Positions 1 to 57,511 of a stretch of 64,000 nucleotides of DNA are shown here, piece after piece. Position numbers and translations under genes: made by a program. The notes under the pieces were generated by a model. The model worked only from the letters and a program-made list of their open reading frames with translations. It was not told the origin of the DNA and did no database searches. The stretch comes from a phage. Where the stretch lies: the NCBI GenBank assembly GCA_012441205.1, contig GCA_012441205.1_4705.1; one strand, written 5' to 3'. Position 1 is the stretch's first letter; every line of letters begins with the position of its first letter.

Positions 1-18
1 GGTGGGGCGAACCCCACC
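1..18 (-). terminator. GC-rich hairpin 3' of CDS 44..469 (window-truncated)
   Basis: ggtgggg-cgaa-ccccacc palindrome; any U-tract would lie beyond the window start. Confidence 0.3.
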
Positions 19-43: not shown

Positions 44-469
44 TTAATTCAGTGATGCATATAAGGCATAACGACTGTAGATCTCAACCGCCGGTCCGTT
101 ATGCGTTAACAGACCGTCTCGGCTGTAATACTGGAAAAATGAATAACGTTTGTCGAAGTGATAAACAAAAGCAATGTCTTTGCCGTCAAAACCTGTGATG
201 CGTGGTCTGTTTTTATCTAGCAATGCTTTGACTTTTAACAGTGTTGCCGCACGTGCTTTAACGTTAGGGATCAAGCCATCACAATCGATATAAACAGTGT
301 AACCTGTTTCAGATGTTGCGACGGTCGTATTGCGATTGACGCGGAAGATTTTTGTTTCGTATGTACTATCTTCAAGAATTGGGTTTTGTTTTTCGTATTT
401 TCGTTTACGCAGAAATTCTACAACGGTGATATAGTTAGCGGTAATATGCCCGGTTATAGCTTGTAACAT
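44..469 (-). CDS. hypothetical protein (141 aa)
   Basis: ORF with AAGGA SD 7 nt upstream of ATG; preceded by conserved leader and promoter-like motif. Confidence 0.6.
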   Translation of the reverse strand: MLQAITGHITANYITVVEFLRKRKYEKQNPILEDSTYETKIFRVNRNTTVATSETGYTVYIDCDGLIPNVKARAATLLKVKALLDKNRPRITGFDGKDIAFVYHFDKRYSFFQYYSRDGLLTHNGPAVEIYSRYALYASLN

Positions 470-500
470 CTTGACATCCTTTTATATTGGATTGGTTGCA
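470..500 (-). promoter_or_regulatory. conserved 5' leader / translation-initiation region, copy 1
   Basis: about 28 of 30 nt identical to 28677..28707, immediately upstream of an unrelated start codon. Confidence 0.45.
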
Positions 501-537
501 ATTGTCTTAAATAGATGATAAGATATTTTGCTCTTAT

Positions 538-561
538 CACTAAGGTAATGTAGTCGCGAAA
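538..561 (-). promoter_or_regulatory. conserved promoter-like motif, copy 1 (TTTCGCGACTACATTACCTTAGTG on minus strand)
   Basis: 24-nt motif shared with 28742..28765 and 57488..57511, each 40-90 nt upstream of a minus-strand start. Confidence 0.45.
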
Positions 562-577
562 TAAACTGCGTTAACAC

Positions 578-640
578 GAAATAAAAAACAGCATAGAACC
601 CTCCTCCCACATCCTTCAAGAGGACGGTGGGAAGAGGGAG
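578..640 (-). terminator. putative intrinsic terminator after CDS 644..1045
   Basis: 12-bp stem CCCTCTTCCCAC/GTGGGAGGAGGG then T-rich tract on minus strand; loop is long (15 nt). Confidence 0.4.
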
Positions 641-643
641 AGA

Positions 644-1045
644 TTAAATGTCGTGGACGGCAATGCCGTTTAACCAGCAATACAGCTTAACGCGACAGGA
701 ATACCGCTTCGTTGCGGCAACCATTTCATCGCGTAAACGCTGGTATATTTCATCCTGGTGTTCACGATCAATGGGGTAATCAGCCCAACATTCGATCATG
801 ACGTCACCATTCGTCAGAATCGTCGTACGCATCCTGTCCTGGATACGGCGGTCTTTCCCGGCATTAGGGAAATACATTCCTTCAGTACGAATAAGGTCGC
901 CGCAAGGCATGACTAACCATTCGTTCGTTTTGCCGGTATTCTTATAATCCATTACAGCTTGCATTGCGGTGTCAACGCTAAAAGAAACATAATTCCAAAC
1001 GGATGTCCAACGATAGATTGCGGGTTGTTCGAGTGTTTCGTTCAT
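644..1045 (-). CDS. hypothetical protein (133 aa)
   Basis: ORF with AGGAAAAG SD upstream of ATG. Confidence 0.6.
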   Translation of the reverse strand: MNETLEQPAIYRWTSVWNYVSFSVDTAMQAVMDYKNTGKTNEWLVMPCGDLIRTEGMYFPNAGKDRRIQDRMRTTILTNGDVMIECWADYPIDREHQDEIYQRLRDEMVAATKRYSCRVKLYCWLNGIAVHDI

Positions 1046-1911: not shown

Positions 1912-3213
1912 TTAACTAATATAAAGTTCGGGATCGTAAGGCGCTAACGATACACTGGCGTTATGCATTGCTTTCATCATAGTGTTCATGAAAACGTTGT
2001 TTACACCGGTGATCTCTGCCCCGATCGCGTCTGGGGTTGGAGCCATCGCGTTACCGCAACAGGTAGCACAGTATTCCAGTGGGCCTGCTTTACAACGTTG
2101 AGGATCACGTAACTTGATGGTCTGTCCTTCCAAGGAAGCAAGTAATTCAGCATCAATAAGTTTAAGCGCTGCGCCGTCGATCATGTAACGGCCGACAAGC
2201 AGCTTATCTTTGATATGATCGCGGTTTACCGTGAACAGAATATGTTCGTGGGTACCACAGTCGTCCATCGTGATTTTAAGGTTCTGTGTCGCACGTTGTG
2301 ATTCTTTCGCCGTCTGTCCCGCTAAAGCGGTCAGTGCGCCACGTGAGAACGAACCTGCACGTGCGCTGTTGTTGTACTCCGCCCAATGGTCGACACGCAT
2401 CCCTTCAGCCAGGCTGTGTGTGATAACGTTACGTTTACCAGGGTCAACGAAGTCGGCTTCAACCCCCATCATGATGTGCGTTTTCTTTCGAGTATTACCG
2501 AAACTCTTACCGGGGTTAATATAGAACCCTTCCGATTCATCACCCTTAAAGGATTCCTTATCCATTTTGGTCAGCGTGGCTTCGAGTTTGATCAGTTCTT
2601 CAGGCGTGAACTTACCTTCCTCTTGTAAGCGTGCTAACTCTTTATCGCGATAGGCAATAATATCATCATCGACCGTTAACGCTTTATCACTCATTGATGG
2701 AACAATTAAACGGTTGATAGCGGTTAACGCACTAATATTGTTGGTGAATTTCTTCACTTCGCTTGCGTACAACGGACCAATTGGACGTTCGTTAGGATCG
2801 GGTATTCCCTCTTCAGGATCGTCAGCGACGCGTGGCGCAATCAGTGACTCCAGTGTACCGCTGGTCAACCGTCCTGCCTGGTATTCAATCTGAATACCGA
2901 AAGCATCATAAAGGACGTACATATTGAACAACGCTTCACCGAAGGTTGTGGTGGTTGTATTCTTAACCGACGGTAGATCACCAGGTGCAAGCTCCAATGG
3001 CTCCCAGAAACTCAACAGGGGTTTTGTTGGCTCGGTTTCCCATTGGTGTTCTTCACCGTCGATGGTAACCGTAACGACGTTACCTTGACGACGTAATTTA
3101 GGCTGATACTTCTCAGCGCCGCCTTCCGTAAAAGCAAATGCGTCGTTAATCCATTCAAGATAACGGTAGTGCCCTTCACGCATCGCGTAAAGGAAATATT
3201 CACGAGGTGTCAT
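1912..3213 (-). CDS. hypothetical protein (433 aa)
   Basis: long ORF, AGGAG SD; no motif recognised. Confidence 0.65.
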   Translation of the reverse strand: MTPREYFLYAMREGHYRYLEWINDAFAFTEGGAEKYQPKLRRQGNVVTVTIDGEEHQWETEPTKPLLSFWEPLELAPGDLPSVKNTTTTTFGEALFNMYVLYDAFGIQIEYQAGRLTSGTLESLIAPRVADDPEEGIPDPNERPIGPLYASEVKKFTNNISALTAINRLIVPSMSDKALTVDDDIIAYRDKELARLQEEGKFTPEELIKLEATLTKMDKESFKGDESEGFYINPGKSFGNTRKKTHIMMGVEADFVDPGKRNVITHSLAEGMRVDHWAEYNNSARAGSFSRGALTALAGQTAKESQRATQNLKITMDDCGTHEHILFTVNRDHIKDKLLVGRYMIDGAALKLIDAELLASLEGQTIKLRDPQRCKAGPLEYCATCCGNAMAPTPDAIGAEITGVNNVFMNTMMKAMHNASVSLAPYDPELYIS

Positions 3214-4195: not shown

Positions 4196-4669
4196 ATGCC
4201 AGTTTCATCCAAACCAAGAAAAAAATCCGTAGGAAACCCTAAAGCTCAGGAAACAACAGCAATTCGTTGGGACGAGTTACGTGAACCTATCGAAAACTGC
4301 GAATTGTTATTAGGTACCCTGGGTGCAGCTATTTACCAAGCGACGCAACCCTGTCGTTTACGATTAACCCAAAACAAACGTGATGAGTTCGTTGCATTAT
4401 CAACAAGCACGAATAAAGATCTGACCGAACTTCAAACCGAGTTGACGACGATCAAGAACTCCATCACGCCGATGTACGGTAAAGAAGTTGATGAACAAAG
4501 TATTCTGTTACAGTACAACTACGGGATGTCGTTAATGAACATCCTGGAACGCGCATCCGATATTCTGCGTCCTGACGTTGCACGCCTAAGCCAGCTGCGT
4601 GTCGAAGGGATGGAGAACCAGATCCGATTCGCTAACAGTGTTAAATCTCAAGGAGCCACCGAAGCATGA
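4196..4669 (+). CDS. hypothetical protein (157 aa)
   Basis: ORF with AGGAG SD; ATGA overlap with the next gene. Confidence 0.6.
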   Translation: MPVSSKPRKKSVGNPKAQETTAIRWDELREPIENCELLLGTLGAAIYQATQPCRLRLTQNKRDEFVALSTSTNKDLTELQTELTTIKNSITPMYGKEVDEQSILLQYNYGMSLMNILERASDILRPDVARLSQLRVEGMENQIRFANSVKSQGATEA

Positions 4670-8295: not shown

Positions 8296-10908
8296 TTAAG
8301 CGTCCGGCGTAAAATCAAAAGGAATGTCCGTACGAATGATATCATAACGTTTTCCGAGGAAATAAAACTCTTCGGGAACCTGACCGGGAATAATGCTATC
8401 ACCGATGAACTGCGGATACGCCCAGATGTACTGAGTGAGTCCTTCGAACATATCCAGGTTATTTGCGTGGTTACCCATGATACGTTTCCAGAGTTCGCGT
8501 TTATACGGCGTTTTAACATCGAAACCATAAAGCGGTGCAAGATCTTCACCAGGAACAAATCCCAGGTAATAGTGAATCTGACTAACCGGGAAACCAAGCG
8601 TATCTCGCGGAATGGTGATCGCTTGCTCAGCTTTGGTGACATGCGTTTCAATAATCCAGTCGTAGCACTCTGAATAGAACCGATCGAATTTCTCTGGATT
8701 ATACCACGCTTTGGGAAGATTCAGTTTCTCCGTGAACGCATTCGACATGATCGTCGGTAAGAACGGAAGAACACCGGTTTTGATCTGCGTGTATTTCGAT
8801 TTTACCCGGTTAGCCAAATTCCAGCAACTGTATCCTAACTGTTCGTTACAAAACTCAACGTAGAGATCGTAATCACCGCCGGATAATGGGTTGTTGATAT
8901 CACCAATGTCTGCAGCGTATTTGTTGGGATATCGGTTATTGAAAGCCAGTTTGGTTTGGTAATCGTAGATACACGGTTTGTTGTTCGCTGTATTGATCCA
9001 CCACCAGGGTTCACCCACCTGTACACAAATGTCCTGGACATGAGGGTAAATAATATCGGCAAACGCGGTTAACACATCCCCTAACCACGCCATCGCCTGT
9101 TGGTTACATGGAGACAGCAACCAGGACGGTGGTGTATATCCGGTTGCTGCGATGTTTCCTTCCCAATCCTGCTGCGCCCACTCGAACGGGCAGGCTGTAC
9201 TCATCAATTCGTAACTTAAACTGATGGTGACAGAGAAATGGTGTTTTGCAGCATATGCGGCGAAAGCTTCATGCCACGCGATACAGGGTGGATTTAATAC
9301 ATCCGTGGTGTTCACCAGTAACTTACCCGCACTTGGCGTCCAGACAGTATCGTAGAAATGCGACATTCCAACATAATGCACTAATTCATCTTGATACCCC
9401 GCATAAACCAGGTTCTCAAATACACGCTCTGGCGTGATGTTGTAATGGTCATCGTAAGCGGTTATCGCACGAAGTTCGTGTGGTGTACAGTGGTGACGAT
9501 TAACCGTCATTTCCTGATACACCCCATCGATAGGAAGAATCTCGAGGGTTAAACCGAGGTCGATTGGCGTTTCCAGATAGGTCGTTTCAGTCGCACCTTC
9601 CTTATAATGTCGAGAACTCATGCTGAACATCAACGATGCTACCGATTCGAGTTCGATAGGCTCGTCAGCATAGAACCCCGCCATTGCGTCATTGAAATCG
9701 ATCGTTACGATTGCGCTTCTACCGTCTTCAGAGACATCGGTGGCGTATCGGGTTAATGAGATATACTGACGGCTATCGTCTTTGTGTACGACGGTTAAAA
9801 CCGGCGGGTTTTCGGTATCTGCAAAGTTACGCTGATCGCCAGTAAACGTGATCTTCGCTTTAAAGATCAAACCGAATAACGACGTCATGGGATCATACGC
9901 AATACAACCGTGATCCAGCGTATCCGTTGTCCGCCATTCTATCCCGACCAACCCGTTAGCGGTATGGCATCGCATATACGCATTAAGGACCATGTCTTCA
10001 CTGACAACCGCGAAGTTCTCTGTTGACTGACCGTTGATAATCCAATACATCGGTTGCCAGAGGTTACGCGTACCTTTTGCGTAGCGGTAGGTTGGTGCGC
10101 CTTTAGGGTTGCCGTTATTGAGATGGAATACGGCAGTACCTTGATAATGGTCGTTCGTATTAATCGGAACACTGTAAGCGTCACCGAGGTCCGTACGTTC
10201 CACCTTCGTGACCGTTGCGTTTTCAAATAACCCACGCAACGCTGGTAAACCGATATCTTCAGGCGCGTTTTCTCGACGAATCGCATCCGCGATGCGATGG
10301 GCTAAGGCGGGGTAAATAGCTTCACCCTGTTGTAGGTTTGCAAGACCTACAAAGCGATCAGGGTCGATACCAGCAATCAATAACTCAACATCACCCTTCG
10401 TTCTATCGTCGTTAAGATATTTCAGTCCGGTAAGGTCAAGATGCTGAATAAGCGACAACAGGTTGTATTTACGGTTTTCAACAGTTAGTACAAGATCGCC
10501 TGCCCAAACCAAACTTCCCTCATCCGCTGTTACTTTAACGGATTGTCGGCCTGTGGTAGACGTTGTTGTCGTTTTATTTAATTGTCCTTGTAGGAAGTCG
10601 GTTGCGAGGTCAAAGGCAATACCGTAACGGTCAGCGACCGCTTGCATGATTTCACGTAACTGGGTATCTTCTTCAATGATAATCTTGACAGGTATTCCCA
10701 GGAACGCTTTAGCGAGGTCTCGTTTAACCAACGAGACGAATACGGATTTGTAGTATCGGCTTCCATCTTTCCCTTTAAAAAGAATGGAGGTTGTTTCGGG
10801 TGCCGATAGAACACGTGCAAATTCAACATCGTCGAAAGTAAGAGAAAGTCCGTTTTTCTCGTTGACCAATCTTAGTATTTCATTTTGCGCGGTTTCATGT
10901 AACTTCAT
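8296..10908 (-). CDS. receptor-binding protein (tail fibre/spike) with conserved N-terminal anchor domain and large unique C-terminal domain (870 aa)
   Basis: N-terminal 150 aa align with four other proteins (17249..19003, 16563..17090, 22652..23482, 59837..61291); GAGG SD. Confidence 0.7.
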   Translation of the reverse strand: MKLHETAQNEILRLVNEKNGLSLTFDDVEFARVLSAPETTSILFKGKDGSRYYKSVFVSLVKRDLAKAFLGIPVKIIIEEDTQLREIMQAVADRYGIAFDLATDFLQGQLNKTTTTSTTGRQSVKVTADEGSLVWAGDLVLTVENRKYNLLSLIQHLDLTGLKYLNDDRTKGDVELLIAGIDPDRFVGLANLQQGEAIYPALAHRIADAIRRENAPEDIGLPALRGLFENATVTKVERTDLGDAYSVPINTNDHYQGTAVFHLNNGNPKGAPTYRYAKGTRNLWQPMYWIINGQSTENFAVVSEDMVLNAYMRCHTANGLVGIEWRTTDTLDHGCIAYDPMTSLFGLIFKAKITFTGDQRNFADTENPPVLTVVHKDDSRQYISLTRYATDVSEDGRSAIVTIDFNDAMAGFYADEPIELESVASLMFSMSSRHYKEGATETTYLETPIDLGLTLEILPIDGVYQEMTVNRHHCTPHELRAITAYDDHYNITPERVFENLVYAGYQDELVHYVGMSHFYDTVWTPSAGKLLVNTTDVLNPPCIAWHEAFAAYAAKHHFSVTISLSYELMSTACPFEWAQQDWEGNIAATGYTPPSWLLSPCNQQAMAWLGDVLTAFADIIYPHVQDICVQVGEPWWWINTANNKPCIYDYQTKLAFNNRYPNKYAADIGDINNPLSGGDYDLYVEFCNEQLGYSCWNLANRVKSKYTQIKTGVLPFLPTIMSNAFTEKLNLPKAWYNPEKFDRFYSECYDWIIETHVTKAEQAITIPRDTLGFPVSQIHYYLGFVPGEDLAPLYGFDVKTPYKRELWKRIMGNHANNLDMFEGLTQYIWAYPQFIGDSIIPGQVPEEFYFLGKRYDIIRTDIPFDFTPDA

Positions 10909-10930: not shown

Positions 10931-11572
10931 TTAAATGTACTGCTTACCGCCCACGAAGGAAGTTAACCAGTTCCCGCTGACGAGTTGTGATACCCAGCCT
11001 GGAACGGCTCTACCATTCTGGCTCATGATGTTACCACACCAACCAGGGAATCCGGGACGGATGTAATAGAAAGTTAAATTGTAGAGATGGCAATTCCATA
11101 CCGCAACGTTATGTTTACCAGAAACCGCTTTAAAGACAAACGCGACAGGTAACGGAGACGATAACAATTCGGTCACAGGGACGGCTGACCAGTTCGCATT
11201 CGCGTTCCATGGTTGCCAGGTATGGCTGCGCGAGTCGCAATATACGTTACCGTTGTTACCGCGCCCACCCGCATTCCACCACAGCGACGGACTCATGTTC
11301 TTAAGTGAGGTAAATTGCTGCGGTGGAATATTAGGAATAATAACAGGGTTGGTACCTTGCCCATGTTTCTTTTCTTTTGCGTTCACATACCCGCTTATCG
11401 ATTCGAGGTATTTGACACCAGGATAATTATTCTGGACTTGTGTCGCAATATCACGAACATCGAACGTCCAGCAGATCATGGTGTTGTAGTAAGCATCGGT
11501 GTTGTCGTACCATGCGTTACCATCTTGTAAACGTGCGCCACTATTCGGTGTTTTATCTGTGTTTATAGCCAT
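10931..11572 (-). CDS. fibre-associated protein, paralog A (213 aa)
   Basis: C-terminal about 45 aa nearly identical to the protein at 11582..12349; lies between fibre genes. Confidence 0.6.
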   Translation of the reverse strand: MAINTDKTPNSGARLQDGNAWYDNTDAYYNTMICWTFDVRDIATQVQNNYPGVKYLESISGYVNAKEKKHGQGTNPVIIPNIPPQQFTSLKNMSPSLWWNAGGRGNNGNVYCDSRSHTWQPWNANANWSAVPVTELLSSPLPVAFVFKAVSGKHNVAVWNCHLYNLTFYYIRPGFPGWCGNIMSQNGRAVPGWVSQLVSGNWLTSFVGGKQYI

Positions 11573-11581: not shown

Positions 11582-12349
11582 CTATACTGCGATGATTGAG
11601 ATATCGGATGCCGGATGTGTGTTGCCATCAGGTGGTACGTACAGAAACACCCACAGATAAAACAGTAGCTTCTCTAACTTCAATTTAATTGAAGTTAGAT
11701 ATTGTTTACCTCCAACAAACGACGTTAACCAATTACCTGAAACAAGTTGCGATGCCCAGCCAGGCACTGCCCTACCGTTCTGGCTCATCACGTTACCTGC
11801 CCATCCCGGAAAACCAGGTCGGAAAATATATACTTGAATATGTGTTAAAGCGTTATCATTACCACCGCCAACAGCAACGTTACGACTCCCAGATGACGGG
11901 AAATATTCTTTTAAGAACAGAGGATCGGTTGCTAATAAAGATGCGGGCCAAGGGTTCGCGGATGCATCAACATCGAATTCGGTCCATCGCCATTTACGTC
12001 CCGTGTCGAACCATGTCGATGTACCACCACCCCTCACGGCAAGATTGCGCGCATCACGGACATTATAAATTGATTCGATGTTACGCCATCCACCTTTTGC
12101 AGCGTTTGCTGCATAGCAAACCGCATTACCACCATTCTTCTTCTCGTAAACGGTTCGTTTGATATGAACACGGTCGATGAACGCTTCACCGTATTTGTTG
12201 ACGAGCGTTTGTGCGATATCACGAAGATCGTGCATGTGAAAAGCGATGTCTTCGTTATGGAACCATGTTGTCTGGTTCCAGACGGTACCGTTTGGTTCGG
12301 CACACATCGATCGGATATTGTTGCGTTGATTAATCGCGATAAAACCCAT
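11582..12349 (-). CDS. fibre-associated protein, paralog B (about 255 aa)
   Basis: homologous to 10931..11572 along its length; start set at ATG 12349 with GAGG SD (track ORF extends to 12436). Confidence 0.55.
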   Translation of the reverse strand: MGFIAINQRNNIRSMCAEPNGTVWNQTTWFHNEDIAFHMHDLRDIAQTLVNKYGEAFIDRVHIKRTVYEKKNGGNAVCYAANAAKGGWRNIESIYNVRDARNLAVRGGGTSTWFDTGRKWRWTEFDVDASANPWPASLLATDPLFLKEYFPSSGSRNVAVGGGNDNALTHIQVYIFRPGFPGWAGNVMSQNGRAVPGWASQLVSGNWLTSFVGGKQYLTSIKLKLEKLLFYLWVFLYVPPDGNTHPASDISIIAV

Positions 12350-12404
12350 TGTATACCTCGTTCCTATTCTCAAAAAGGAAATTTCATACGATGACGCCAT
12401 AGCA

Positions 12405-12434
12405 GCTCCTCCTTCCCTTACGGGTTGGAGGAGC
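12405..12434 (-). terminator. hairpin element, second copy of the 7279..7312 element
   Basis: reverse complement nearly identical to 7281..7312; no strong U-tract. Confidence 0.4.
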
Positions 12435-12442
12435 ATACTTAA

Positions 12443-12997: not shown

Positions 12998-15217
12998 TTA
13001 CTTTTTGAGCGCTTTAAGTTCTTCTTCCATCGCTTCCACTTTTGCCGTAAGCTTCTGTACTTGTTTGATTAATGGAACCACCAAACGTTCGTACATAACA
13101 CCTTCGGCGACGAGTCCGTTAGAAGAAACGATAGCGGGGTCATCTTCTTCGGTTGCATCACGCCAATGCACGTATTGTGGTGCGATCTCACCAACCTCTT
13201 CGGCAATCAACCCATACCAACCCCAATCCTTGTTGTCGGCTTCGCAGGTAGAACGATACCAGACAGGACGCATCTCCAATACTTTATCCGCTTGTTCATC
13301 CGTGATATTCTCGATATCTTTCTTATAGCGCCGCGACGACGTTGAACGAAACACATTGTTGATCCCAGCAGTAGGACTGATATACATATTAGCCCCGCTG
13401 GTTGTAGTGCTAATGTCCCATACCGCAAATCCGCCGTTACTCCCATTTCTCACGACCAACGTATTGGCAATAATATCCAGGTTATTGTTGTAACCGGTTA
13501 ACTGGTTTTCGGTGACAAAATCGGATAAGTTAACGGAGTAGTTCTTGCTGTTATAACAACGACGCCATCCTGGGCTGTTGGTGCTGCCATTATAGTTGTC
13601 GTAGCTATAAATGAACTCGGAGTTGGTTTTCGCACCACTGACGGAAGACGTGGTTGCGGTGGTAACACGGATAGTGTAGTTCGTCATCCCGAAGCTAACG
13701 ACCTCGATAACCGCACCAGCCAGAGGAATAATACCACATTTGGTTTCACTGTCTGGGATGTATGCGCTATCGGCAGCAGCGAAGGAGCAACGTGCGACCC
13801 AGGCACGGGTATTGAATGCACCTTGGTTCTGTAATAACGTAATAAACGATGAGGTCGTAATCGAGCTGTTATTATCACCTGTGATCAACCAGCCGGTTGG
13901 ACATGCGGTAGCACCAACGTTTTTCGCTGTTAGCGTGATGTTCTTCGATCCGTCGAAGGCTACGCCGCTGATGGTACGTGCAGTCTGTAGCTTCGTCGCC
14001 GTTGCCGCGTTCCCTGATGTGTTCTGGTTGCCTGTTGTATTCACACCCGGGATACTATCCTTAGATGTGTAGATCTGTGCCCATTCCGACCATTTCGCAT
14101 CGGTTGAATCACGACGTGAACGTAGGTAAGCTGGAGCGTGTGCACCCGAGGTACCTGACCATCCAATGAGGATTTCACCTTCGCCGACCGATGAAGCGCC
14201 TTTAAGATGAACAACGTTACCGTAGGCTGTAGGGTATCCGTTATTGTACGCTTCATACATCTGGATACCCGTATTGCTGCCCTGGGTCGCATTAGCTAAA
14301 GCGGTAACCCGTCCCTTGGAAGCGAGCACGTTAATGCTAAAGCTAATATCGGTTGTACCGTCAAAGGCGACCCCATTAATCCTCCGCGCTGTTTGGAGTT
14401 TCGTGGCAGTAGCCGCATTACCAGAGGTACTCTGATTGCCTGCTTTGTTCACACCTGGTAAATCAATGTTGGCGGTTCCATCAAAGGACACGCCCCCTAT
14501 GGTTCTCGCCGTCTGAAGTTTTGTTGCTGAACCAGCGTTTCCGGAAGTGCTTTGATTACCCGTCGCGTTGACACCTGGTAGGTTAATGCTAGCAGAACCA
14601 TCAAAAGAAACTCCACCGATCGTAATAGCTGTTCGCAACTTCGTGGCTGTCGCAGCGTTACCCGTCGTATTCTGATTACCAGCTGCATTGACGCCAGGTA
14701 ATGCGATATCAGCTGTGCCATCGAACGCGACACCTCCGATTTTACGGGCGGTTTGTAGCTTGGTTGCTGTAGCAGCATTACCGCTGGTATTTTGCGTACC
14801 GGCTTTATTTACACCAGGAAGATCGATGTTAGCAGAACCATCGAAGCTGACGCCACCTATCGTTCTTGCAGTAGCAAGTTTAGCGGCTGTAGCAGCGACG
14901 TTACCGACTTTTAACCATTCTCCCCATGGACCATCCACACCGTTCCATGATGCCGTTAAACTGCGCACGTATATGTTTCCTGTACGTACTGTGTAACGTT
15001 GTGTTCCACCGAATTGACCGGCTGGGAGCACTTCGATGTAACCTACAGCATTTGCTTCAGGGAAATTGTGGGCAGCATCGGCATTCGTTGATGTTTGTTT
15101 GGACCAAATACCCACAGACGCTTCAACCGGACCGTAGGTATCCAGATTTGCATCGGTGGGGAGCTGTCCTCGAAAACGTCGGAATAATGAAGCCGATAAC
15201 CCCAACGTTGTTTGCAT
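12998..15217 (-). CDS. long tail fibre, distal segment with tandem fibre repeats and C-terminal intramolecular-chaperone (S74-like) domain (739 aa from first ATG)
   Basis: about 40-aa repeats GNAATATKLQTARTIGGVSFDGSANIDLPGVN; C-terminal YKKDIENITDEQADKVLEMRPVWY...GLIAEEVGEIAPQYV; frame stays open upstream of the ATG to 15325. Confidence 0.8.
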   Translation of the reverse strand: MQTTLGLSASLFRRFRGQLPTDANLDTYGPVEASVGIWSKQTSTNADAAHNFPEANAVGYIEVLPAGQFGGTQRYTVRTGNIYVRSLTASWNGVDGPWGEWLKVGNVAATAAKLATARTIGGVSFDGSANIDLPGVNKAGTQNTSGNAATATKLQTARKIGGVAFDGTADIALPGVNAAGNQNTTGNAATATKLRTAITIGGVSFDGSASINLPGVNATGNQSTSGNAGSATKLQTARTIGGVSFDGTANIDLPGVNKAGNQSTSGNAATATKLQTARRINGVAFDGTTDISFSINVLASKGRVTALANATQGSNTGIQMYEAYNNGYPTAYGNVVHLKGASSVGEGEILIGWSGTSGAHAPAYLRSRRDSTDAKWSEWAQIYTSKDSIPGVNTTGNQNTSGNAATATKLQTARTISGVAFDGSKNITLTAKNVGATACPTGWLITGDNNSSITTSSFITLLQNQGAFNTRAWVARCSFAAADSAYIPDSETKCGIIPLAGAVIEVVSFGMTNYTIRVTTATTSSVSGAKTNSEFIYSYDNYNGSTNSPGWRRCYNSKNYSVNLSDFVTENQLTGYNNNLDIIANTLVVRNGSNGGFAVWDISTTTSGANMYISPTAGINNVFRSTSSRRYKKDIENITDEQADKVLEMRPVWYRSTCEADNKDWGWYGLIAEEVGEIAPQYVHWRDATEEDDPAIVSSNGLVAEGVMYERLVVPLIKQVQKLTAKVEAMEEELKALKK
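13936..14908 (-). repeat. in-frame coding repeats of the tail fibre (about 120-nt unit, about 5 tandem copies at 14344..14908 plus one distal copy at 13936..14047)
   Basis: repeats visible in both DNA and translation; copies are diverged. Confidence 0.6.
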
Positions 15218-17248: not shown

Positions 17249-19003
17249 TTATGCTGCTACATATCCAGGCCAACGTTCTCTTGGCCAGTTTGTTGCGCCC
17301 TGTCCAACGTTGTCCTTACCAGAAATTACATTACTTACGTCCCAACCACTAAGATCCTGGTTAAATGCGGTGTTGTTACGCATCATGAGGTCGATATTAC
17401 GTAATGATTGGGTATTCCAGCCGGAAATGTCTTGGTTGAATGCCGTGTTGTAAGCAAACATGTTAACAACGTTTTGTAATTTTGAAGTGTTCCAGCCGCT
17501 AATATCGCCATTGAACTGCATGCTCGAGAACATACTGCTAGCATCGATAAGACTATCTGTTTTCCAGTTAACCAGCTTGTTTTCATCAAGTGCGTTGCAA
17601 CTACTGAACATGTAACTCATGTTGTTAACTTTGGATACATCCCATTTATCTAACCCGTTACCAACGAACTCGTAACAAGCTTGGAACATCCAGCTCATGT
17701 CGGTAACCTGGCTCACATTCCATTTGCTAAAGTCGAGGTTGAGTTTTGCGCATCCGGAGAAAGTTTTATACATACTGGTGATACGACTAACATCCCATTC
17801 TTGAATGTTAGGATCATTAAGTATAGATAAGAATTGGAACAATCCGTCTAACGACGTCCATTTCTCTGGAATACGGTTTGGTACTGTACGGAGCGATGAA
17901 AGGTTATTGGTTGACGGAGAGCGGAACATACCGTTATCCCAATTTACGATTTCCGTAATGTTGTACCCACGGATCGTTTGGCGTCCATTACCATTATACA
18001 CAGACCCTGTTGCAGTTATTGTATATTCGTTTGTATCAGCATACGTATGTTCAGCCTGTGTAGGCCACTCACCTATTACATCCCTATTCCCATCACCCCA
18101 ATCGATGGAAATATTTGTCCAACCATCAAGATCTAGGGTAACGGTCCCGCCATTGGTCTTCAGGATGTATTTACCTGCATTGTCGGTATAATAACAAACG
18201 ATCATCGCACCGTACAGGTTACCAATTTGCCAATCATCCTTTTGAGTTACCGCGATATGTGCTGTGCCACGTTGTAGGAAAAGAACCGTACGGTTCTCGT
18301 CAGTCTGTAATGTGGTTAATGCTTGAGCCTTATCATCGTCGGTAATTTCACCAGCTTCCACTAAAGCACTTAACATTCTTTCGAAGTATTCGATGGGTAA
18401 TTGGTGTCCTACAGACATATCAACTGATGGAACAGCGAGATCATCCAATGCGGCGGCAGTTGCAAGCACTAATGATCCATTGGTGGTGTCTGTTTCTTGG
18501 AGGTAATGCAGTCCCGTAATCTGGTACGCTTGAATGATTGTAATCAGATCCAGCGTATCGTTAATGACCTGTACTTGTAAATGTCCAGACCAAACATAGC
18601 TGCTTTCAGCAATCGGTAATTCGACCGACTGAATACCCGATGTTTCAAAACTGATCTTCTTATTAAGATCGGCTTCCAGGAAATCAACCGCGAGGTCGAA
18701 ATTTATACCGTACTTTTCAGCGATGGAATCTATGATGTTCCTGAAAGCAACATCGGTACTTACGATGAATCGTAAAGGGATTCCTGTGAACGCATTAGCA
18801 ATATCTCGACGAACATACGTAAGTGATTGTTCGAAGAAATAGGGACTGTTATCTCCAGGTTTGATGGTTACCTGACACATTTCAGGATGTTCAGCTGGGA
18901 TGAACGATTCAAATTTAACATCGGATTCCTTCAACGAAAGCATGTTCTTCCGGTTTACCAGCGCCAGAAGATCGGCTTTCCATCCAGGATAAACAGTAGA
19001 CAT
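17249..19003 (-). CDS. receptor-binding protein: N-terminal anchor domain, PKD-like motif and C-terminal BspA/DUF285-type repeats (about 584 aa)
   Basis: anchor alignment; ISIDWGDGN...HTYADTNEYTI; repeats WDVSxVTxMxxMFxxCxxFNxDISxW; start set at ATG 19003. Confidence 0.7.
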   Translation of the reverse strand: MSTVYPGWKADLLALVNRKNMLSLKESDVKFESFIPAEHPEMCQVTIKPGDNSPYFFEQSLTYVRRDIANAFTGIPLRFIVSTDVAFRNIIDSIAEKYGINFDLAVDFLEADLNKKISFETSGIQSVELPIAESSYVWSGHLQVQVINDTLDLITIIQAYQITGLHYLQETDTTNGSLVLATAAALDDLAVPSVDMSVGHQLPIEYFERMLSALVEAGEITDDDKAQALTTLQTDENRTVLFLQRGTAHIAVTQKDDWQIGNLYGAMIVCYYTDNAGKYILKTNGGTVTLDLDGWTNISIDWGDGNRDVIGEWPTQAEHTYADTNEYTITATGSVYNGNGRQTIRGYNITEIVNWDNGMFRSPSTNNLSSLRTVPNRIPEKWTSLDGLFQFLSILNDPNIQEWDVSRITSMYKTFSGCAKLNLDFSKWNVSQVTDMSWMFQACYEFVGNGLDKWDVSKVNNMSYMFSSCNALDENKLVNWKTDSLIDASSMFSSMQFNGDISGWNTSKLQNVVNMFAYNTAFNQDISGWNTQSLRNIDLMMRNNTAFNQDLSGWDVSNVISGKDNVGQGATNWPRERWPGYVAA

Positions 19004-19041: not shown

Positions 19042-22000
19042 TTAAATTGTCGGTTTCACGTCGCGTAATAGGGCAATATAATAGCCTAATCCTCGGAGGA
19101 TCTCCCCACTCCAGAAACCAAAATACATTCCGTCTCTGCCGAGATTAGCACTATCTGGTGCAGGACTCCACCCACCATTCATTGCGTCATCAACGGTGTA
19201 GCGGTTGATGTAGTTTTCAACGATTTCATTATAAACGTTAACGGCAACAGGATAGCCTTTATCGTTGGGATGCCCATACAACATCGCTAACGACGCACCC
19301 GCTAACCATAATCCTGCCATATGACCAGTAAAGTCATTAGGGATAAAAGCAGGGGGTTTATCCATCGGAAAATCCGTAGGAGATTGATAAGCGTTTTCCT
19401 GTTGATACGTAAACAAGAAATCGATCCAATGGCTGATGTAAGTGGTTAACTTCTCAGGGACAGCCAAACCATGATCGAGCAGTCCGGCATAAAGCCTCAC
19501 CGCTGAAAAGAAAGCCCTCGGCTGATAACCAGACCATGCTGTCTGATCGCCGAAGTGGTACATCGTAAAATCATTAACTTTCGATCCGCTTGGCGCATCC
19601 CAACGATCCCACACGTACGCACTTGCTCCTGGCCCTAAAACCCCGAATTTCTGATAATACCACTGCTGCGAGTCATACCAGAAATTCACAACATTCTGAA
19701 TCATGAGGTCACGTCGTTCAGCCGATACGTCCATATCCAGGAAGACCCATGGATGTTGGTAGCCGGGATAAGGCTGACCACGCCAGCTGTCGAACGTCGG
19801 TGCGTTAGGGATATAGTTGTTCGAGAACGGAATAATACCCGGAGTATAAGGCAATGGATCCAGACGTTGGTTGACAATCGTACAATCGCCAACACGCAAT
19901 GTGCCCTCTGCCTCAAAGATTGCTTTTAACGTAAACAGCATGGTATATCCGTCATCCGTGGTGTAAGTTGACGGTGGATTGTTGATGGCGTAAAGCTTAA
20001 ATACCCCTTCAGCGATATCGCTGTCATCAGGCAAGAACAGAATTTCAGTTGAACCGTCGCCCCACACAGGTGCGGAAGGTTTAGGGTCAGTATCAGCATG
20101 GCCAGGTTGATACCCTGAGAGCCTCCATCCGTTCGCCGAAAGCGTCAATGTATTTCTTGCTGTGGTGGCCGGTAGCATATACCACCATCGCCAACCATTT
20201 GCATCTTCTACACGAACGTTGTAGTCAATCGACGCGAAATAACTGACCTGCCTTACGATCTGTTTTGCGGTTGGATTGAATTCAAATTGTCCGCCTGCCG
20301 CAGTAAGCTGCGCTTTTAGGAACAACCCATCCCAGGAATCTTCCACTGCTTCGCTGAATTCTGTTGTGATTGCGATATCGTCTTTCCAGCCGACTTTATC
20401 AGCCGACATCAACACCGAACCTGTAACAGCATCACCGGTTGGTATTGAAGCTTCATCAACCGCATCAGCGGGAATCAACGAGCCTATTTTGAAATCCCAT
20501 CCTTTCGGTTCAACGCTGGAAGGTAATACCAGCTTGTACGTTTTGGCTTTCGCTTCGGTTTTGTCCAAAGAAAGCGATAATGAGATCTCAACCGGAATTG
20601 CAACGCCTGTCGTATCTTTACCGCCGCAGGTTACCCGAAGAATTGAATCACGATTGACGCGGAACGGAATGGCCTGCTGTTCAAGGTAAATTTGTGCTGA
20701 AGATGCTTGAATCACGATCCAACCATCGGTATCACGCGTGATTGTGAACGGCGCTTTCGACGGGTATGTATACGTGTAAGCGATACCGTCGGTGTCGTAA
20801 CGATCGGTTCCTTTTACTTGACGGAAGAACTTATCGTTAGCGTCAATACGGGTATATTCTTCAATCGTAAACAAAGACGCCTTGTACGCTTTCTGATAAC
20901 GCTCCTGCTGCGTTAAACGGTATAAGGTGTAGGCTGCTTCACAAAACCACTGTTCAGCGTCTGACGCGTTTCCCATGTAGTCTCTGGTGACTGGTACCTG
21001 GATCGGTCGGTTATGCTGACACTCGTTCGTTTTGATGAGGTATCCGCCATATTCAACAGGAACACGCGGTGCCCATGCAACCAAGTAAGAACCGTTGACG
21101 GATTTATCTTTGAGTACGATAGTACCTACTTCATCGTCAGTACACGCTTCAAGATCGTCCCCGTCAGCACTTACGTAACGTTTTGTGCGTAACGCAACTT
21201 TCTCGATAGGGAACACCGTACCCTTTGTATCCCAGTCAATCGTCCCATCATCATTGGTTTTGAACACATCCGCGTTCAAATTCTGCCAGCCGAGTTTACC
21301 TTCATAGACCTGAACAACAAGATCCATGTATTCCCCGAACGTTGGTGCCCCATGTGTTATTTTCCCGATACCGTTGGTGAATGTAACCGCTGTGTCATGG
21401 AAACCGCCATGTGTTGGGTAATCGTCTTTTGCAAGAGGATAATGGGCCAACACAGGTTGTTTACCATTAACAATCCAGTTAGCGATCCAGCGTGCCGGTG
21501 TATCCGGTGGTTCAAGGCCTGCATAGAACGCTTTTATATACGCATCGAACGATGCCTCTGCTAATGTGAGATAGTGCGCTTTAAGCTTGGTATCATCCGT
21601 TGTATGACTGAATATACCCGCACCCAGAATTAACAACGACTGTCCTTCTGTTGTTGCGTCACCATCCGGTTGTGCTTCTTGTCGTGTTGCTGCAATGAAA
21701 TGACGGTTGTTTACCATGACCCCGCTTTCATTTAACACGTAATGATCGGTTTCTGGGTCGGTAAACGTTCCTGTGTTTCGGGTTAAGAATCTTGCATGGC
21801 CATAACCAACGAAATTAACCGGCGACGCTGTAATCATCCATTTACCGATAAGTTGAGCAACATCATTATAACGCTCGGATGCGGTGATTTGTTTCACGTA
21901 CCAGTCTTTATGGTTAAATGTCCAAAGCAGGAAGTAATAAGTTGTATCGATTTCCATCACTGGGAACGTCGGCGTTAACGGCTCCAGCGTTAAGTAGTTG

Positions 22001-22638
22001 CTCCAGTCAATCTGTCCGCCAACCACCGATGGGGTAATCTCTAATAACTGACACCATTCATAACGGTCCGGTACACTACTGGACGTTGTTGGTAAAGGTA
22101 ACTTGTATACGCCAGTACGATTCAGATCGAACGCTTTTCTAGCCGATCCTAAATCAACATAAATACTCGATGATGCGCTTGCACTATATGCCCCCAAAGC
22201 ACCTAGCGTTGACCGATACATTGAGATGAACAACGTATCTTTCCAGTAAGGGTTATCCTTGGTTGGTTCTAAAGCGATTTGTGCGGAGATGCTGTTCCAT
22301 GTCCCTAACTGGTATGTCGCATTTAAAGATTCTTCTGTGAAATAACTTTCTGCAATCGTCAGATGGAACTGCTCGTTCAATAACGCGAGTGCGGCGCGGC
22401 CAGTAACATCCTCGTTACCGGTTTCTTTTTTCACGATCGCGCCGAACGGAAACAGTGTCGCGAATGACCGTTTTGGTTTATTAACCGTAACCGTCCCTGT
22501 GTAATTTCCAACACCGTCAAGTTTTTGACTATCGCCAACAGCAGTGACTGCGATACCATCAGCCGGGATATTTGTTTTATTTAGTACATTGAGTTGGTCA
22601 ACCAGATCCTGCTTATCGTCAGGTAAGAATGTCGCCAT
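19042..22638 (-). CDS. large tailspike-like protein, possible depolymerase (1198 aa)
   Basis: very long ORF directly downstream of an anchor-only gene; AAGGTGGAG SD; no catalytic motif recognised. Confidence 0.65.
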   Translation of the reverse strand: MATFLPDDKQDLVDQLNVLNKTNIPADGIAVTAVGDSQKLDGVGNYTGTVTVNKPKRSFATLFPFGAIVKKETGNEDVTGRAALALLNEQFHLTIAESYFTEESLNATYQLGTWNSISAQIALEPTKDNPYWKDTLFISMYRSTLGALGAYSASASSSIYVDLGSARKAFDLNRTGVYKLPLPTTSSSVPDRYEWCQLLEITPSVVGGQIDWSNYLTLEPLTPTFPVMEIDTTYYFLLWTFNHKDWYVKQITASERYNDVAQLIGKWMITASPVNFVGYGHARFLTRNTGTFTDPETDHYVLNESGVMVNNRHFIAATRQEAQPDGDATTEGQSLLILGAGIFSHTTDDTKLKAHYLTLAEASFDAYIKAFYAGLEPPDTPARWIANWIVNGKQPVLAHYPLAKDDYPTHGGFHDTAVTFTNGIGKITHGAPTFGEYMDLVVQVYEGKLGWQNLNADVFKTNDDGTIDWDTKGTVFPIEKVALRTKRYVSADGDDLEACTDDEVGTIVLKDKSVNGSYLVAWAPRVPVEYGGYLIKTNECQHNRPIQVPVTRDYMGNASDAEQWFCEAAYTLYRLTQQERYQKAYKASLFTIEEYTRIDANDKFFRQVKGTDRYDTDGIAYTYTYPSKAPFTITRDTDGWIVIQASSAQIYLEQQAIPFRVNRDSILRVTCGGKDTTGVAIPVEISLSLSLDKTEAKAKTYKLVLPSSVEPKGWDFKIGSLIPADAVDEASIPTGDAVTGSVLMSADKVGWKDDIAITTEFSEAVEDSWDGLFLKAQLTAAGGQFEFNPTAKQIVRQVSYFASIDYNVRVEDANGWRWWYMLPATTARNTLTLSANGWRLSGYQPGHADTDPKPSAPVWGDGSTEILFLPDDSDIAEGVFKLYAINNPPSTYTTDDGYTMLFTLKAIFEAEGTLRVGDCTIVNQRLDPLPYTPGIIPFSNNYIPNAPTFDSWRGQPYPGYQHPWVFLDMDVSAERRDLMIQNVVNFWYDSQQWYYQKFGVLGPGASAYVWDRWDAPSGSKVNDFTMYHFGDQTAWSGYQPRAFFSAVRLYAGLLDHGLAVPEKLTTYISHWIDFLFTYQQENAYQSPTDFPMDKPPAFIPNDFTGHMAGLWLAGASLAMLYGHPNDKGYPVAVNVYNEIVENYINRYTVDDAMNGGWSPAPDSANLGRDGMYFGFWSGEILRGLGYYIALLRDVKPTI

Positions 22639-22651
22639 TATTTACTCCACC

Positions 22652-23482
22652 TTAATCGTAACTAAAATAAAGTTTGCTGCTGACGCCGCTATCGGAATGA
22701 GGTTTTAACACCAGAACAGAGCTTCCGAACGACGGAAGTATTGGAACATCTAAATCGTTCGCATCGGCAACTTTTCCATTATAAACGACATTGGCTGTTG
22801 TGATGAGTTCCCAGGCTAAGGTATAACTCATTGAAATCAGCGACGAGGCTAAACGGAATGCATTGTATCCTTCTGGAGTATCTCCAACCGACATCGTACG
22901 TATCGCATCTTGCGGCGGTAAATTTAGCTTGATGCCGTAGGTGCTGAATGTGTGGAAATCCCCTTGTTTACTATCTTCTGGATAATACGAGGTTAGCGGT
23001 TCTCGCACCGTAATCAGTTCGCTAATATCGGTACTTACCGCTTTTCGGGCGAGGAATTGAAACGTACCGTACCACGATGCTGATGTATCAGAATGAACGG
23101 GAACAGCTATGGTTTTCTCGTCGCTTTCAAATTTAACCTGCGACACTAACGCTGAAGAATCAAAGATCGTTAAATCGATCTTCAACCCATACTTCTTAAA
23201 CAGCTGCGTTAAGCAGTCTGCTATCGTCGTCTTATCAGCAACGACAATAAAAGGTTGGTGTTTGATAAAGAGCTTATTAATGTCTCGACGTTGAAGATAA
23301 ACCTGTACGGGGTCTTCGATATAGTAAGCCGATTGTGGTGCGGGGACTATAGAAAGGCGTAACCGACCTGATGCACCATACCAGGCTGGCGTTAACGTAA
23401 CGTCTGACAGAGACAACGGGTGCTGGAGATAGGCGTTTATTTTAGATAACACTTCCTCCTGCCATGATGCTTCAGGATACAT
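22652..23482 (-). CDS. anchor-domain protein, divergent paralog (276 aa); first gene of the fibre operon
   Basis: W..EVL..IN...LSLSDVTL...YYIEDPVQVYLQRRDINKLF...YGLKIDL aligns with the conserved anchor domain; GAGG SD. Confidence 0.65.
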   Translation of the reverse strand: MYPEASWQEEVLSKINAYLQHPLSLSDVTLTPAWYGASGRLRLSIVPAPQSAYYIEDPVQVYLQRRDINKLFIKHQPFIVVADKTTIADCLTQLFKKYGLKIDLTIFDSSALVSQVKFESDEKTIAVPVHSDTSASWYGTFQFLARKAVSTDISELITVREPLTSYYPEDSKQGDFHTFSTYGIKLNLPPQDAIRTMSVGDTPEGYNAFRLASSLISMSYTLAWELITTANVVYNGKVADANDLDVPILPSFGSSVLVLKPHSDSGVSSKLYFSYD

Positions 23483-23540
23483 GCTGACCTCATAGATGAT
23501 CGTTGATAGGAAAGAAACCTAATTCATACCATGGGAGCCT

Positions 23541-28358: not shown

Positions 28359-28676
28359 TTAGTTTGCACGTAAGAAATGACCTAGAACCGTTACAATTGG
28401 AAACAGTCCTGTAACCGTATTATCACCAGAAAACATCATCTTTGAGTCGTTAACGGTGATGAAACGGATGTCGGTTGCGGATCCGTCGATAGCGACAAAA
28501 CGCATTGAGTTCGGTGGAAGATCCTCAACAACTTCCACGAGGTGTTCACGATTTTCAAAGGCTTCTTTAACACGACGCATGAAACGAATCAATGTTCCTT
28601 CAGCGTCGGCTTCCAAATGACCTAAGATATCGCGATTATTGCGAATAGCGAATACAGACATTTTAAACATACACAT
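28359..28676 (-). CDS. hypothetical protein (105 aa)
   Basis: ORF preceded by conserved leader and promoter-like motif. Confidence 0.5.
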   Translation of the reverse strand: MCMFKMSVFAIRNNRDILGHLEADAEGTLIRFMRRVKEAFENREHLVEVVEDLPPNSMRFVAIDGSATDIRFITVNDSKMMFSGDNTVTGLFPIVTVLGHFLRAN

Positions 28677-28707
28677 CTTGACATCCTCTTATATTGGATT
28701 GATTGCT
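28677..28707 (-). promoter_or_regulatory. conserved 5' leader / translation-initiation region, copy 2
   Basis: near-identical to 470..500. Confidence 0.45.
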
Positions 28708-28741
28708 AATAATTCAAGGTGAAGCTGATTACTGCATTGCT

Positions 28742-28765
28742 TCACCTAGGTAATATAGCCGTGAA
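28742..28765 (-). promoter_or_regulatory. conserved promoter-like motif, copy 2 (TTTCACGGCTATATTACCTAGGTG on minus strand)
   Basis: matches copies at 538..561 and 57488..57511; followed by an 8-bp hairpin. Confidence 0.45.
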
Positions 28766-28784
28766 AATTAATGCATTAATTTAT

Positions 28785-44078: not shown

Positions 44079-44083
44079 CTCTC

Positions 44084-56759: not shown

Positions 56760-57446
56760 TTAACACATGATTTCACCATGTTTCTTTTCAACATACGTAT
56801 AAACATCATCCAAATAAGCAATGAGTTTATCACGATCCGCACAGAGCGATTTAATCATCGCAATCTCTTTCATATAAAGCTGCTGACCTAACGCCGGATA
56901 GGTAATCCAAGCGTAGCCGTCAGGCGCAAATTTAGAAATAAGATAATCGGCGGTTTCCTGTAATGCGAACTCTTTGCTCATCTGGCCGTAACGATGTTCG
57001 ATTGCACGGATACCAAAACGTTCGCTATCGAGACGGCCCATATCCGCCAGACGAAGCACTTGAGAGGCAACCGAACTACGTGGACCAGAATACGAGGCAC
57101 GATGTTCAGCAATAAGTACGCGTATCTCCTCGATGTCTTCCGGTGTGAAAATATGCTGCTCGTTACGAAGCAGGATAACCGATGCACGAATACCCCCGAT
57201 AAGGTGGTGGTATGTTCTGTTTTCGTGGCAAGCGATATCATGCATAAATGCAGCGGTTAATAGACGACGACGTTCCGTGGGTCTGATGATCCCAACCACA
57301 TCAGCAAGTTCATTTGCCAGTTCAACAACGGCAAGCACATGTTCTTCTTGATGTGCAAGATCGTTCTTCCGAATATTTTCAATTACTTCAGCGCGAGTTT
57401 CCCGAGATAAGAAATTTAAACAATCCAACGAATATAAAGATTTCAT
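56760..57446 (-). CDS. HD-domain phosphohydrolase (228 aa)
   Basis: H...HD motif (EEHVLAV...FMHDIACHE). Confidence 0.6.
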   Translation of the reverse strand: MKSLYSLDCLNFLSRETRAEVIENIRKNDLAHQEEHVLAVVELANELADVVGIIRPTERRRLLTAAFMHDIACHENRTYHHLIGGIRASVILLRNEQHIFTPEDIEEIRVLIAEHRASYSGPRSSVASQVLRLADMGRLDSERFGIRAIEHRYGQMSKEFALQETADYLISKFAPDGYAWITYPALGQQLYMKEIAMIKSLCADRDKLIAYLDDVYTYVEKKHGEIMC

Positions 57447-57487: not shown

Positions 57488-57511
57488 CACGTAAGTAATA
57501 TAGCCGTGAAA
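57488..57511 (-). promoter_or_regulatory. conserved promoter-like motif, copy 3 (TTTCACGGCTATATTACTTACGTG on minus strand)
   Basis: 22 of 24 nt identical to copy 2; 42-65 nt upstream of the HD-domain gene start. Confidence 0.4.

Follow-up and report, generated by a model that had tools for sequence, protein, structure and literature searches.

Predicted early promoters, 5′-end stem-loops, and a shared leader in a Goslar-like chimallivirus

In a 64,000-nucleotide (nt) stretch of phage DNA (assembly GCA_012441205.1, contig GCA_012441205.1_4705.1; hereafter the window, meaning the whole stretch analyzed), three copies of a long minus-strand motif most probably represent early promoters of a Goslar-like chimallivirus that are read by the multisubunit RNA polymerase carried in the virion (estimated probability, 0.85–0.9). 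These sites, together with the hairpins accompanying two of them and a leader shared by two unrelated genes, had been pointed out in a first-pass annotation made from the sequence letters.

Motif sites and the polymerase expected to read them

In its first 3 kb, the window shares 95.7% identity with Escherichia phage vB_EcoM_Goslar, and window position 1 corresponds approximately to Goslar position 86,155. Goslar is a 237-kb chimallivirus—that is, a nucleus-forming jumbo phage of E. coli—with both a virion and a non-virion multisubunit RNA polymerase, and its annotation lists chimallin (the nuclear shell protein), PhuZ, and several split β/β′ RNA polymerase genes. Early genes of chimalliviruses are transcribed by a multisubunit RNA polymerase packaged in the virion (PMC7598289, PMC12908238). 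A check for a phage RNA polymerase gene, proposed in the first-pass annotation, identified the following gene in the window:

1912..3213, minus strand: gene for a split RNA polymerase β-subunit fragment (PHROG 2962, E=5.8e-106); in Goslar, the annotation of gp078 reads RNA polymerase beta subunit

Judged from this open reading frame (ORF), the window phage carries the multisubunit polymerase type of jumbo phages. Furthermore, σ70-like promoter matches are depleted relative to dinucleotide shuffles, with 10 versus 18.0±5.2 at window positions 20000–29000 and 19 versus 29.5±5.9 at positions 44000–57700, which fits a phage independent of the host polymerase.

The three predicted promoters are given below from −36 to +2, with their scores on a 41-nt weight matrix that was trained on 10 Goslar sites and applied to the window:

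537..574, minus strand: predicted early promoter 1, containing motif copy 1 (TTTCGCGACTACATTACCTTAGTG, 561..538), with TTAAC.CA, TTTCGCGA (−23..−16), CTACATTACCT (−15..−5), and TGA; +1 at G538; 48.2 bits
28742..28779, minus strand: predicted early promoter 2, containing motif copy 2 (TTTCACGGCTATATTACCTAGGTG, 28766..28743), directly after the stop codon of ORF 28785–29810; +1 at G28743; 47.6 bits
57487..57524, minus strand: predicted early promoter 3, containing motif copy 3 (TTTCACGGCTATATTACTTACGTG, 57511..57488), in a divergent intergenic region facing a plus-strand helicase gene; +1 at G57488; 45.4 bits

All three copies named in the first-pass annotation are present, its coordinates for copy 2 having been off by 1 nt. 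The position-weight-matrix scan suggested there places the three sites far above background, with the next-best site in the window scoring 9.5 bits and the top of 20 shuffles reaching 13.7 bits; this wide gap indicates that the window holds exactly three sites. With respect to frequency by chance, a degenerate 19-mer allowing up to 3 mismatches gave 4 matches in the window against 0.23 expected, the fourth (18501–18519) having 3 mismatches and lying within an ORF. Matches of the 19-mer in unrelated contigs (L017, L018, and L031) are due to chance. When the window was searched for repeats without prompting, the motif emerged as family D3 and the leader as family D5.

The aligned consensus is TTAAy.CA-N5-TTTCACGR-CTAYATTACYT-N3-TGA, with TTAAy.CA at −36..−29, TTTCACGR at −23..−16, CTAYATTACYT at −15..−5, and TGA at −1..+2. 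The start (+1) was assigned, by analogy to AR9 and phiKZ, to the G of the invariant TGA, which lies exactly 6 nt downstream of TAYATTAC, as in those two phages. From the predicted starts at 538, 28743, and 57488 (Goslar equivalents, 86,691, 113,783, and 142,786) to the ATGs at 469, 28676, and 57446, the distances are 69, 67, and 42 nt, respectively. Among the further starts predicted in Goslar is one at 172,964.

In Goslar, the exact core CTAYATTACYT occurs 10 times, always on the minus strand and just before a minus-strand gene; seven of these sites have the long form of the motif, and three have only the core together with an A-rich upstream stretch. The relaxed core TAYATTACYTNNNTGA occurs 12 times, compared with ~0.03 sites expected from uniform base frequencies (own calculation), and the two additional sites precede gp040 and the nuclear-shell gene chmA. 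The latter has been described as an early gene transcribed by the virion polymerase (PMC12908238), and RNA sequencing of Goslar found 175 genes to be on at 5 min (bioRxiv 10.1101/2023.09.20.558163). A published legend touching on the chmA start site is ambiguous, and its meaning may be no more than that the sequence shown begins 91 nt upstream. All sites, 3/3 in the window and 12/12 in Goslar, are intergenic and co-oriented with the next gene, for which the chance expectation is well below 1.

Motifs of this type have been described in related phages. All jumbo phages encoding their own polymerases are described as having an AT-rich motif near −10 before early operons, which is recognizable by bioinformatics and is read by the virion polymerase (PMC7598289), and predicted early promoters have been published for phiKZ (TATATTAC), 201phi2-1 (TTAWTAVAA_HYWTTTRARR_BTATATTACDWHDGTG), and EL (WTTTYAAACCTACATTATY) (PMC7058600, Table 2). 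The AR9 early promoter is AAATATATATTAT-(6N)-G+1, and the phiKZ start is likewise 6 nt past the element (PMC5312081). Conservation in the early promoters of 201phi2-1 and phiKZ is found at −10, −20, and −30 (PMC11512511); with +1 placed at the G of TGA, the three Goslar-group blocks fall at the same positions. Nearly all of the weak matches obtained in a low-stringency BLAST search with the 40-nt motif lay in unannotated regions of other chimalliviruses, and the four matches inspected—in PhiPA3 (TTTTCACATCTATATTACCTATCTGA), Erwinia phage EarlPhillipIV (TTTTCAGATATATATTACCTACGTGA), Erwinia phage Huxley, and E. coli phage Lh1B—are all intergenic and face the next gene. PhiPA3 and jumbo phages of Erwinia, Salmonella, and E. 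coli thus have the core as well. The phage-specific, non-σ70 promoter class postulated in the first-pass annotation is therefore borne out, in that the sites match phiKZ-family early promoters and the genome encodes an RNA polymerase.

The likeness to the early promoters of phiKZ, 201phi2-1, PhiPA3, EL, and OBP/N1M2 comprises the TAYATTAC core at −14..−7, the same −10/−20/−30 blocks, a GTG at the same distance, and a location before operons of mostly hypothetical genes and chmA; the phages belong to the same family and have the same polymerase genes. Points of difference are the −20 block, which contains G and C in the Goslar group (TTTCACGR) but is T/A-rich in the phiKZ-family promoters, and the three Goslar sites that have only the core and an A-rich upstream stretch. 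AR9, a Bacillus phage, shares the AT-rich TATATTAY core, the 6-nt spacer, and the G start, and its injected multisubunit polymerase transcribes without new protein synthesis, like the system proposed here; however, AR9 has uracil-containing DNA, no nucleus, and other upstream blocks. By homology, the virion polymerase of the window phage, injected with the DNA, would recognize ~38 bp through blocks near −35, −20, and −10, and would initiate 6 nt past the core, where the invariant TGA has its G.

Two other kinds of polymerase have to be weighed against the virion enzyme. The first-pass annotation had likened the motif to the promoter of a single-subunit phage RNA polymerase, and a highly conserved motif of more than 24 nt does resemble T7-class promoters. 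A hairpin beside a promoter also recalls phage N4, in which an injected virion polymerase transcribes early genes and a hairpin is tied to the promoter (PMC4496689). The N4 enzyme, however, is single-subunit and recognizes a DNA hairpin upstream of +1, whereas the Goslar group has a multisubunit enzyme, a conserved double-stranded motif, and a hairpin of variable sequence downstream of +1. In addition, the window phage is a chimallivirus with split multisubunit β/β′ genes; no single-subunit polymerase of the T7, SP6, or N4 type is annotated in Goslar, no T7-like polymerase was found among the 12 scanned window ORFs of at least 292 aa, and the motif is homologous to the early promoters of phiKZ, 201phi2-1, EL, and AR9. 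A T7/SP6/N4-like promoter is on these grounds hardly credible, and the comparison drawn in the first-pass annotation does not hold.

Unusual host σ70 promoters, through which host RNA polymerase would read the early genes, are very improbable. In such promoters, TAYATT would be the −10 element and TTAAyn, at a distance of 16 nt, a weak −35 element. Each site matches 8 of the 12 consensus positions with a 16-nt spacer (own count), but all three fall under the 9/12 threshold of the consensus scan and went unreported by it. Positions irrelevant to σ70 (the TTTCACGR spacer, ACCT, and TGA) are invariant, the conservation is ~38 nt long with the spacer and +1 included, and the same core is used by Pseudomonas, Erwinia, and Salmonella phages. 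Furthermore, phiKZ-family development is independent of the host polymerase (PMC7598289), and injected Goslar DNA is transcribed within a vesicle carrying the virion polymerase. The earlier remark that the motif is unlike a σ70 −35/−10 pair agrees with both the missed consensus scan and the length of the conservation.

The early-promoter class recognized by the virion polymerase is already known and is textbook material for this phage family. For Goslar, neither annotated promoters nor mapped start sites were found in the literature, and its GenBank record lists terminators only; hence the coordinates given here are useful. They provide precise predicted starts for a phage group that serves as the E. 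coli model of nucleus-forming phages, at 3 sites in the window and 12 in Goslar, including that of chmA. The sites also form a ready set of elements, predicted to be specific for the virion RNA polymerase, for engineering and reporter design. One annotated Goslar gene, the 62-aa gp047 (49,584–49,772), overlaps an early promoter with a predicted start at ~49,718; a good Shine–Dalgarno sequence and an ATG lie ~50 nt past this start, and the gp047 annotation is probably wrong.

Stem-loops at predicted transcript 5′ ends

The enrichment of hairpins at the predicted 5′ ends of these early transcripts is not accidental. In the window, the hairpins that the first-pass annotation had described after copies 1 and 2 were recovered as palindromes:

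516..539, minus strand: hairpin 1, DNA palindrome TGATAAGA-GCAAAATA-TCTTATCA; 7 bp in the RNA from +1
28718..28746, minus strand: hairpin 2, GGTGAAGC-AATGCAGTAATCA-GCTTCACC; 8-bp palindrome in the DNA, 5 bp paired in the RNA from +1

When sequences were folded from the predicted +1, a stem-loop was found to begin at +1/+2 in 7 of the 10 Goslar promoters. Stems were then counted strictly, requiring at least 5 Watson–Crick base pairs starting at nt 1–3 and a loop of 3–16 nt. The control frequency of such stems was 5.2%, measured at 2287 TGA positions in the window; qualifying stems are present at 4/10 Goslar promoters (p=0.0012 versus control) and at 14/28 of the TATATTACCTNNGTGA sites in IMG/VR jumbo contigs of at least 180 kb (p=2e-11 versus control), and at 16% of the sites that the same pattern finds in small contigs, which are mostly chance matches. 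In the positional profile of the 28 jumbo-contig sites, stems begin abruptly at +1/+2, with essentially none upstream, which is consistent with a start 6 nt after the core.

The sequence of the stem varies between promoters while its pairing is kept. Among at least 9 Goslar-group genomes compared (from IMG/VR and metagenomes), the stems are kept and the loops rewritten, with the copy-1 loop being GCAAAATA, GCAAGATA, or CATCGGGT and the copy-2 loop AATGCAGTAATCA or AATGGGGTCATTA; in one orthologue, a C-to-T change in the stem gives a G·U pair. A stem-loop of the form GAGATT-loop-AATCTY from +1 is common to many Erwinia-, Salmonella-, and E. coli-type chimalliviruses.

A hairpin located 0–2 nt from the 5′ end has the geometry that blocks 5′-end-dependent attack by RNase E and RppH. 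This geometry is that of the 5′-terminal stem-loops stabilizing E. coli mRNAs of the ompA/papA type (Emory, Bouvet, Belasco 1992, cited in PMC3997798). In the window, a stem-loop within ~2 nt of the 5′ end, as placed by the inferred start, is found in copies 1 and 2. The stems here are short (5–8 bp) and AU-rich, and their role is suggested by position and enrichment. A 5′-terminal hairpin may thus shield early mRNAs from RppH/RNase E decay once they are in the cytoplasm. Such protection is the preferred reading; that the hairpin acts at the RNA level is nevertheless tentative, held at a little under even odds.

Several observations weigh against the reading developed so far. The start at the G of TGA is placed by homology to AR9 and phiKZ, the stem of copy 3 is no more than a weak AU/GU one, and the 28 jumbo-contig sites are not phylogenetically independent. 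For the Goslar set alone, the folding energies of the first 30–40 nt are unexceptional, and a test for asymmetry between G·U and A·C pairs, designed to tell selection on the RNA from selection on the DNA, was uninformative. Moreover, several Goslar-group palindromes begin 1–7 nt upstream of the predicted +1; the RNA hairpin would consequently be shorter than the palindrome, with 5 bp in copy 2 and almost no stem at Goslar gp200 and gp225. Such shortening is compatible with a role in the DNA, or with an origin by mutation alone.

Palindromes without RNA function, acting in the DNA on melting or polymerase escape or arising at a hot spot as by-products of palindrome-generating replication or recombination, are rather unlikely. 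In favor of this view, the palindrome arms of Goslar-like phages often reach −1, −3, or −7, this very position is where inserts of the palindromic form X-X′-X, with direct repeats of 10–12 nt, arise and move, and the G·U/A·C test showed no strand asymmetry. The wider chimallivirus sample points the other way, however, with a stem onset that is sharp at +1/+2 and not upstream; in addition, stems are retained while loops are replaced, and many stems are closed by G·U, equivalent to an A·C mismatch on the other strand. Enrichment of hairpins at the 5′ end across many chimalliviruses was not found stated as a hypothesis in the literature consulted, and this modest observation, which may be new, bears on how early mRNAs made in the vesicle survive in the host cytoplasm.

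In eight IMG/VR jumbo contigs (L045, L061, L073, L074, L092, L100, L101, and L132), GAGATT pairs with AATCTY 6–8 nt further on, often with TTTT next. The combination of GAGATT/AATCTY and TTTT could act as an attenuator close to the promoter, in addition to forming a 5′ cap-like hairpin. A promoter-proximal terminator was considered for the hairpins and was not adopted, TTTT following the stem at some Erwinia-type sites but being absent at Goslar-group sites. A second candidate, pairing of the 3′ arm of the copy-1 hairpin with the ribosome-binding region (z=−2.5) as a shared switch, was rejected: copy 2 has no equivalent. This alternative pairing of copy 1 is weakened in IMG/VR contig 3300045988_173921, as read from the sequence.

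The shared leader and exchange between early promoters

The transcripts predicted from promoters 1 and 2 carry nearly the same sequence directly before their first genes, both of which lack PHROG and Pfam matches and occur only in Goslar-like phages:

466..499, minus strand: shared leader copy 1, GCAACCAATCCAATATAAAAGGATGTCAAGATGT, with an A/U-rich tract, Shine–Dalgarno sequence AAGGA, a 7-nt spacer, and ATG at 469
44..469, minus strand: orphan gene of 141 aa, homologous to Goslar gp075, which appears to form an early unit by itself
28673..28706, minus strand: shared leader copy 2, GCAATCAATCCAATATAAGAGGATGTCAAGATGT, with ATG at 28676
28359..28676, minus strand: 105-aa orphan gene, homologue of Goslar gp105, heading a multi-gene minus-strand unit

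The two copies, 34 nt long and 94% identical, are the only members of repeat family D5 in the window, and their similarity stops exactly at the ATG. The near-identical leader of the first-pass annotation is therefore present, and its statement that the downstream proteins are unrelated also stands, with BLASTP showing no similarity between the 141-aa and 105-aa proteins. The leader core CAATCCAATATAArAGGATGTCrAGATG is found only at gp075 and gp105 orthologues, in Goslar, 2 IMG/VR genomes, and at least 5 metagenomic genomes; the metagenome search pattern itself fixed this core, so that its invariance in the metagenomic genomes is uninformative. A second promoter within the leader, for the non-virion polymerase, was also considered, but no TATG-type late motif was seen there by eye.

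Judging by these sequences, the leader is probably a plain ribosome-binding cassette rather than an operator. A translational operator—that is, an RNA site through which a phage or host regulator would co-control the two genes, as T4 RegA and gp32 do—had been proposed, and is improbable. It would account for the 94% identity over 34 nt up to the start codon, in contrast to the diverged hairpin region between promoter and leader, and for the retention of the leader at both genes in at least nine Goslar-like genomes, each with just these two copies; moreover, the chimallivirus RNA-binding protein ChmC binds near start codons. However, two copies do not make a regulon, no ChmC motif is known, and no secondary structure is common to the two leader-bearing 5′ untranslated regions (UTRs; z=−2.5 for copy 1 and +0.4 for copy 2). 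The variable leader positions differ freely among orthologues, and the leader is not clearly more conserved among them than the neighboring DNA, which leaves selection on it unproven. Furthermore, exchange of cassettes between early promoters is directly observed, as described below, and such movement of promoter-proximal DNA explains the leader, through duplication or ectopic exchange, at least as well as an operator does. The shared leader most likely goes back to a cassette reaching from promoter to ATG that was copied, or swapped from one early promoter to another, and would then have been kept by selection for efficient translation.

Direct evidence for exchange comes from a 42-nt palindromic insert, GTTCATGATGCCATGCATCATGAACGCGACGCGTAAGCGTTAC, which is identical at two early promoters and lies directly after the TATATTAC core at both. 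In IMG/VR contig 3300011560 it is found at the gp021 promoter, and in metagenome contig OGZS01000006 at the gp075 promoter. The identity of the two inserts shows that promoter-proximal DNA has been exchanged between early promoters; a match to the 42-nt element at a further locus (L165) is due to chance, the contig being unrelated. More generally, palindromic inserts of 39–56 nt separate the TATATTAC core of early promoters precisely from their native −6..+3. The layout of these inserts is X, loop, X′, CGA, a small GC hairpin, and X, with X being a copy of ACCTnnnTGA from the promoter itself, flanked by a direct repeat of 10–12 nt. Such inserts are located at ~3036–3130 (plus strand) of L016, at ~4362–4500 (plus strand) of L014, and at ~226,640–226,700 (minus strand) of Goslar, and a further one is found on the minus strand of L161, ~90 nt upstream of the leader match at 10023–10044. 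The window contains no palindromic insert of this type.

A short distance upstream of the copy-1 terminator–promoter junction, the homology shared with some relatives is interrupted, and this terminator–promoter cassette marks a mosaic junction. An ORF at 644–1045, upstream of promoter 1 (window ~600–1045, minus strand), is common to the window phage and Goslar. In two related genomes (loci L150 and L151), unrelated sequence is found at this ORF, and homology restarts at the terminator GGGTTCTATGCTG.

The closest analogy is found in T4-type phages, in which promoter-early stem-loop (PeSL) cassettes mediate modular gene shuffling (PMC2839356, PMC4122927). The early promoters described here resemble PeSLs in being repeated cassettes of early promoter and stem-loop that flank small orphan genes at mosaic junctions and exchange sequence; they differ in that PeSL promoters are of the σ70 type and the PeSL stem-loop is a terminator, whereas here the promoter would be used by a phage polymerase, and the stem-loop comes after the predicted start. 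Chimallivirus early promoters might be composite cassettes that combine the known motif recognized by the polymerase with a selected stem-loop at +1, which marks or protects vesicle-made mRNAs; exchange of these cassettes between promoters, with their promoter-proximal palindromic modules and ribosome-binding leaders, would drive shuffling as PeSLs do. This proposal is conjectural and falls short of even odds. If it is true, the stem-loop would act through RppH/RNase E resistance or through handling during export; its form is a constant GAGATT...AATCTY in jumbo phages of Erwinia, Salmonella, and E. coli, and its sequence varies in the Goslar group. Recombination of cassettes bears on the shuffling of orphan early genes; this, too, is a modest observation that may be new.

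Transcription units and neighboring sequence

The predicted unit of promoter 1 is bracketed by two terminators, and the first gene after promoter 3 has a Pfam domain:

583..640, minus strand: terminator of the upstream gene, just before promoter 1, CTCCCTCTTCCCAC...GTGGGAGGAGGG followed by TTCTATGCTGTTTTTT, resembling the published phiKZ terminator motif
1..18, minus strand: terminator at the end of the predicted unit of promoter 1; the Goslar annotation has a terminator here (86155–86172)
56760..57446, minus strand: gene for an HD-domain protein (PF01966), homologue of Goslar gp159, first gene after promoter 3, with a 42-nt 5′ UTR

For the unit of promoter 2, the first strong terminator-like site downstream is at 23606–23574. 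In terminators located before early promoters, as at 583–640 in the window and at ~43,300–43,345 in Goslar (both on the minus strand), TTCTATGCyGT comes after a C-rich/G-rich stem. For phiKZ, the conserved terminator motif is BCCYCCCCHWWDGGGRRGGBYTTATKYYGT (PMC10914365), and the close likeness to it suggests that the terminator signal is common to the phage family.

A scan of the whole window against Rfam at the gathering threshold gave no match. A 124-nt direct repeat, 74% identical and with a spacing of 762 nt, is present at 10938–11061 and 11700–11823; it falls in the adjacent minus-strand ORFs 10931–11572 and 11582–12436, which are probably paralogous genes. The minus-strand tail-fibre ORF at 12998–15217 encodes 739 aa, compared with ~1324 aa for Goslar gp090, and the tail-fibre region is apparently divergent between the two phages.

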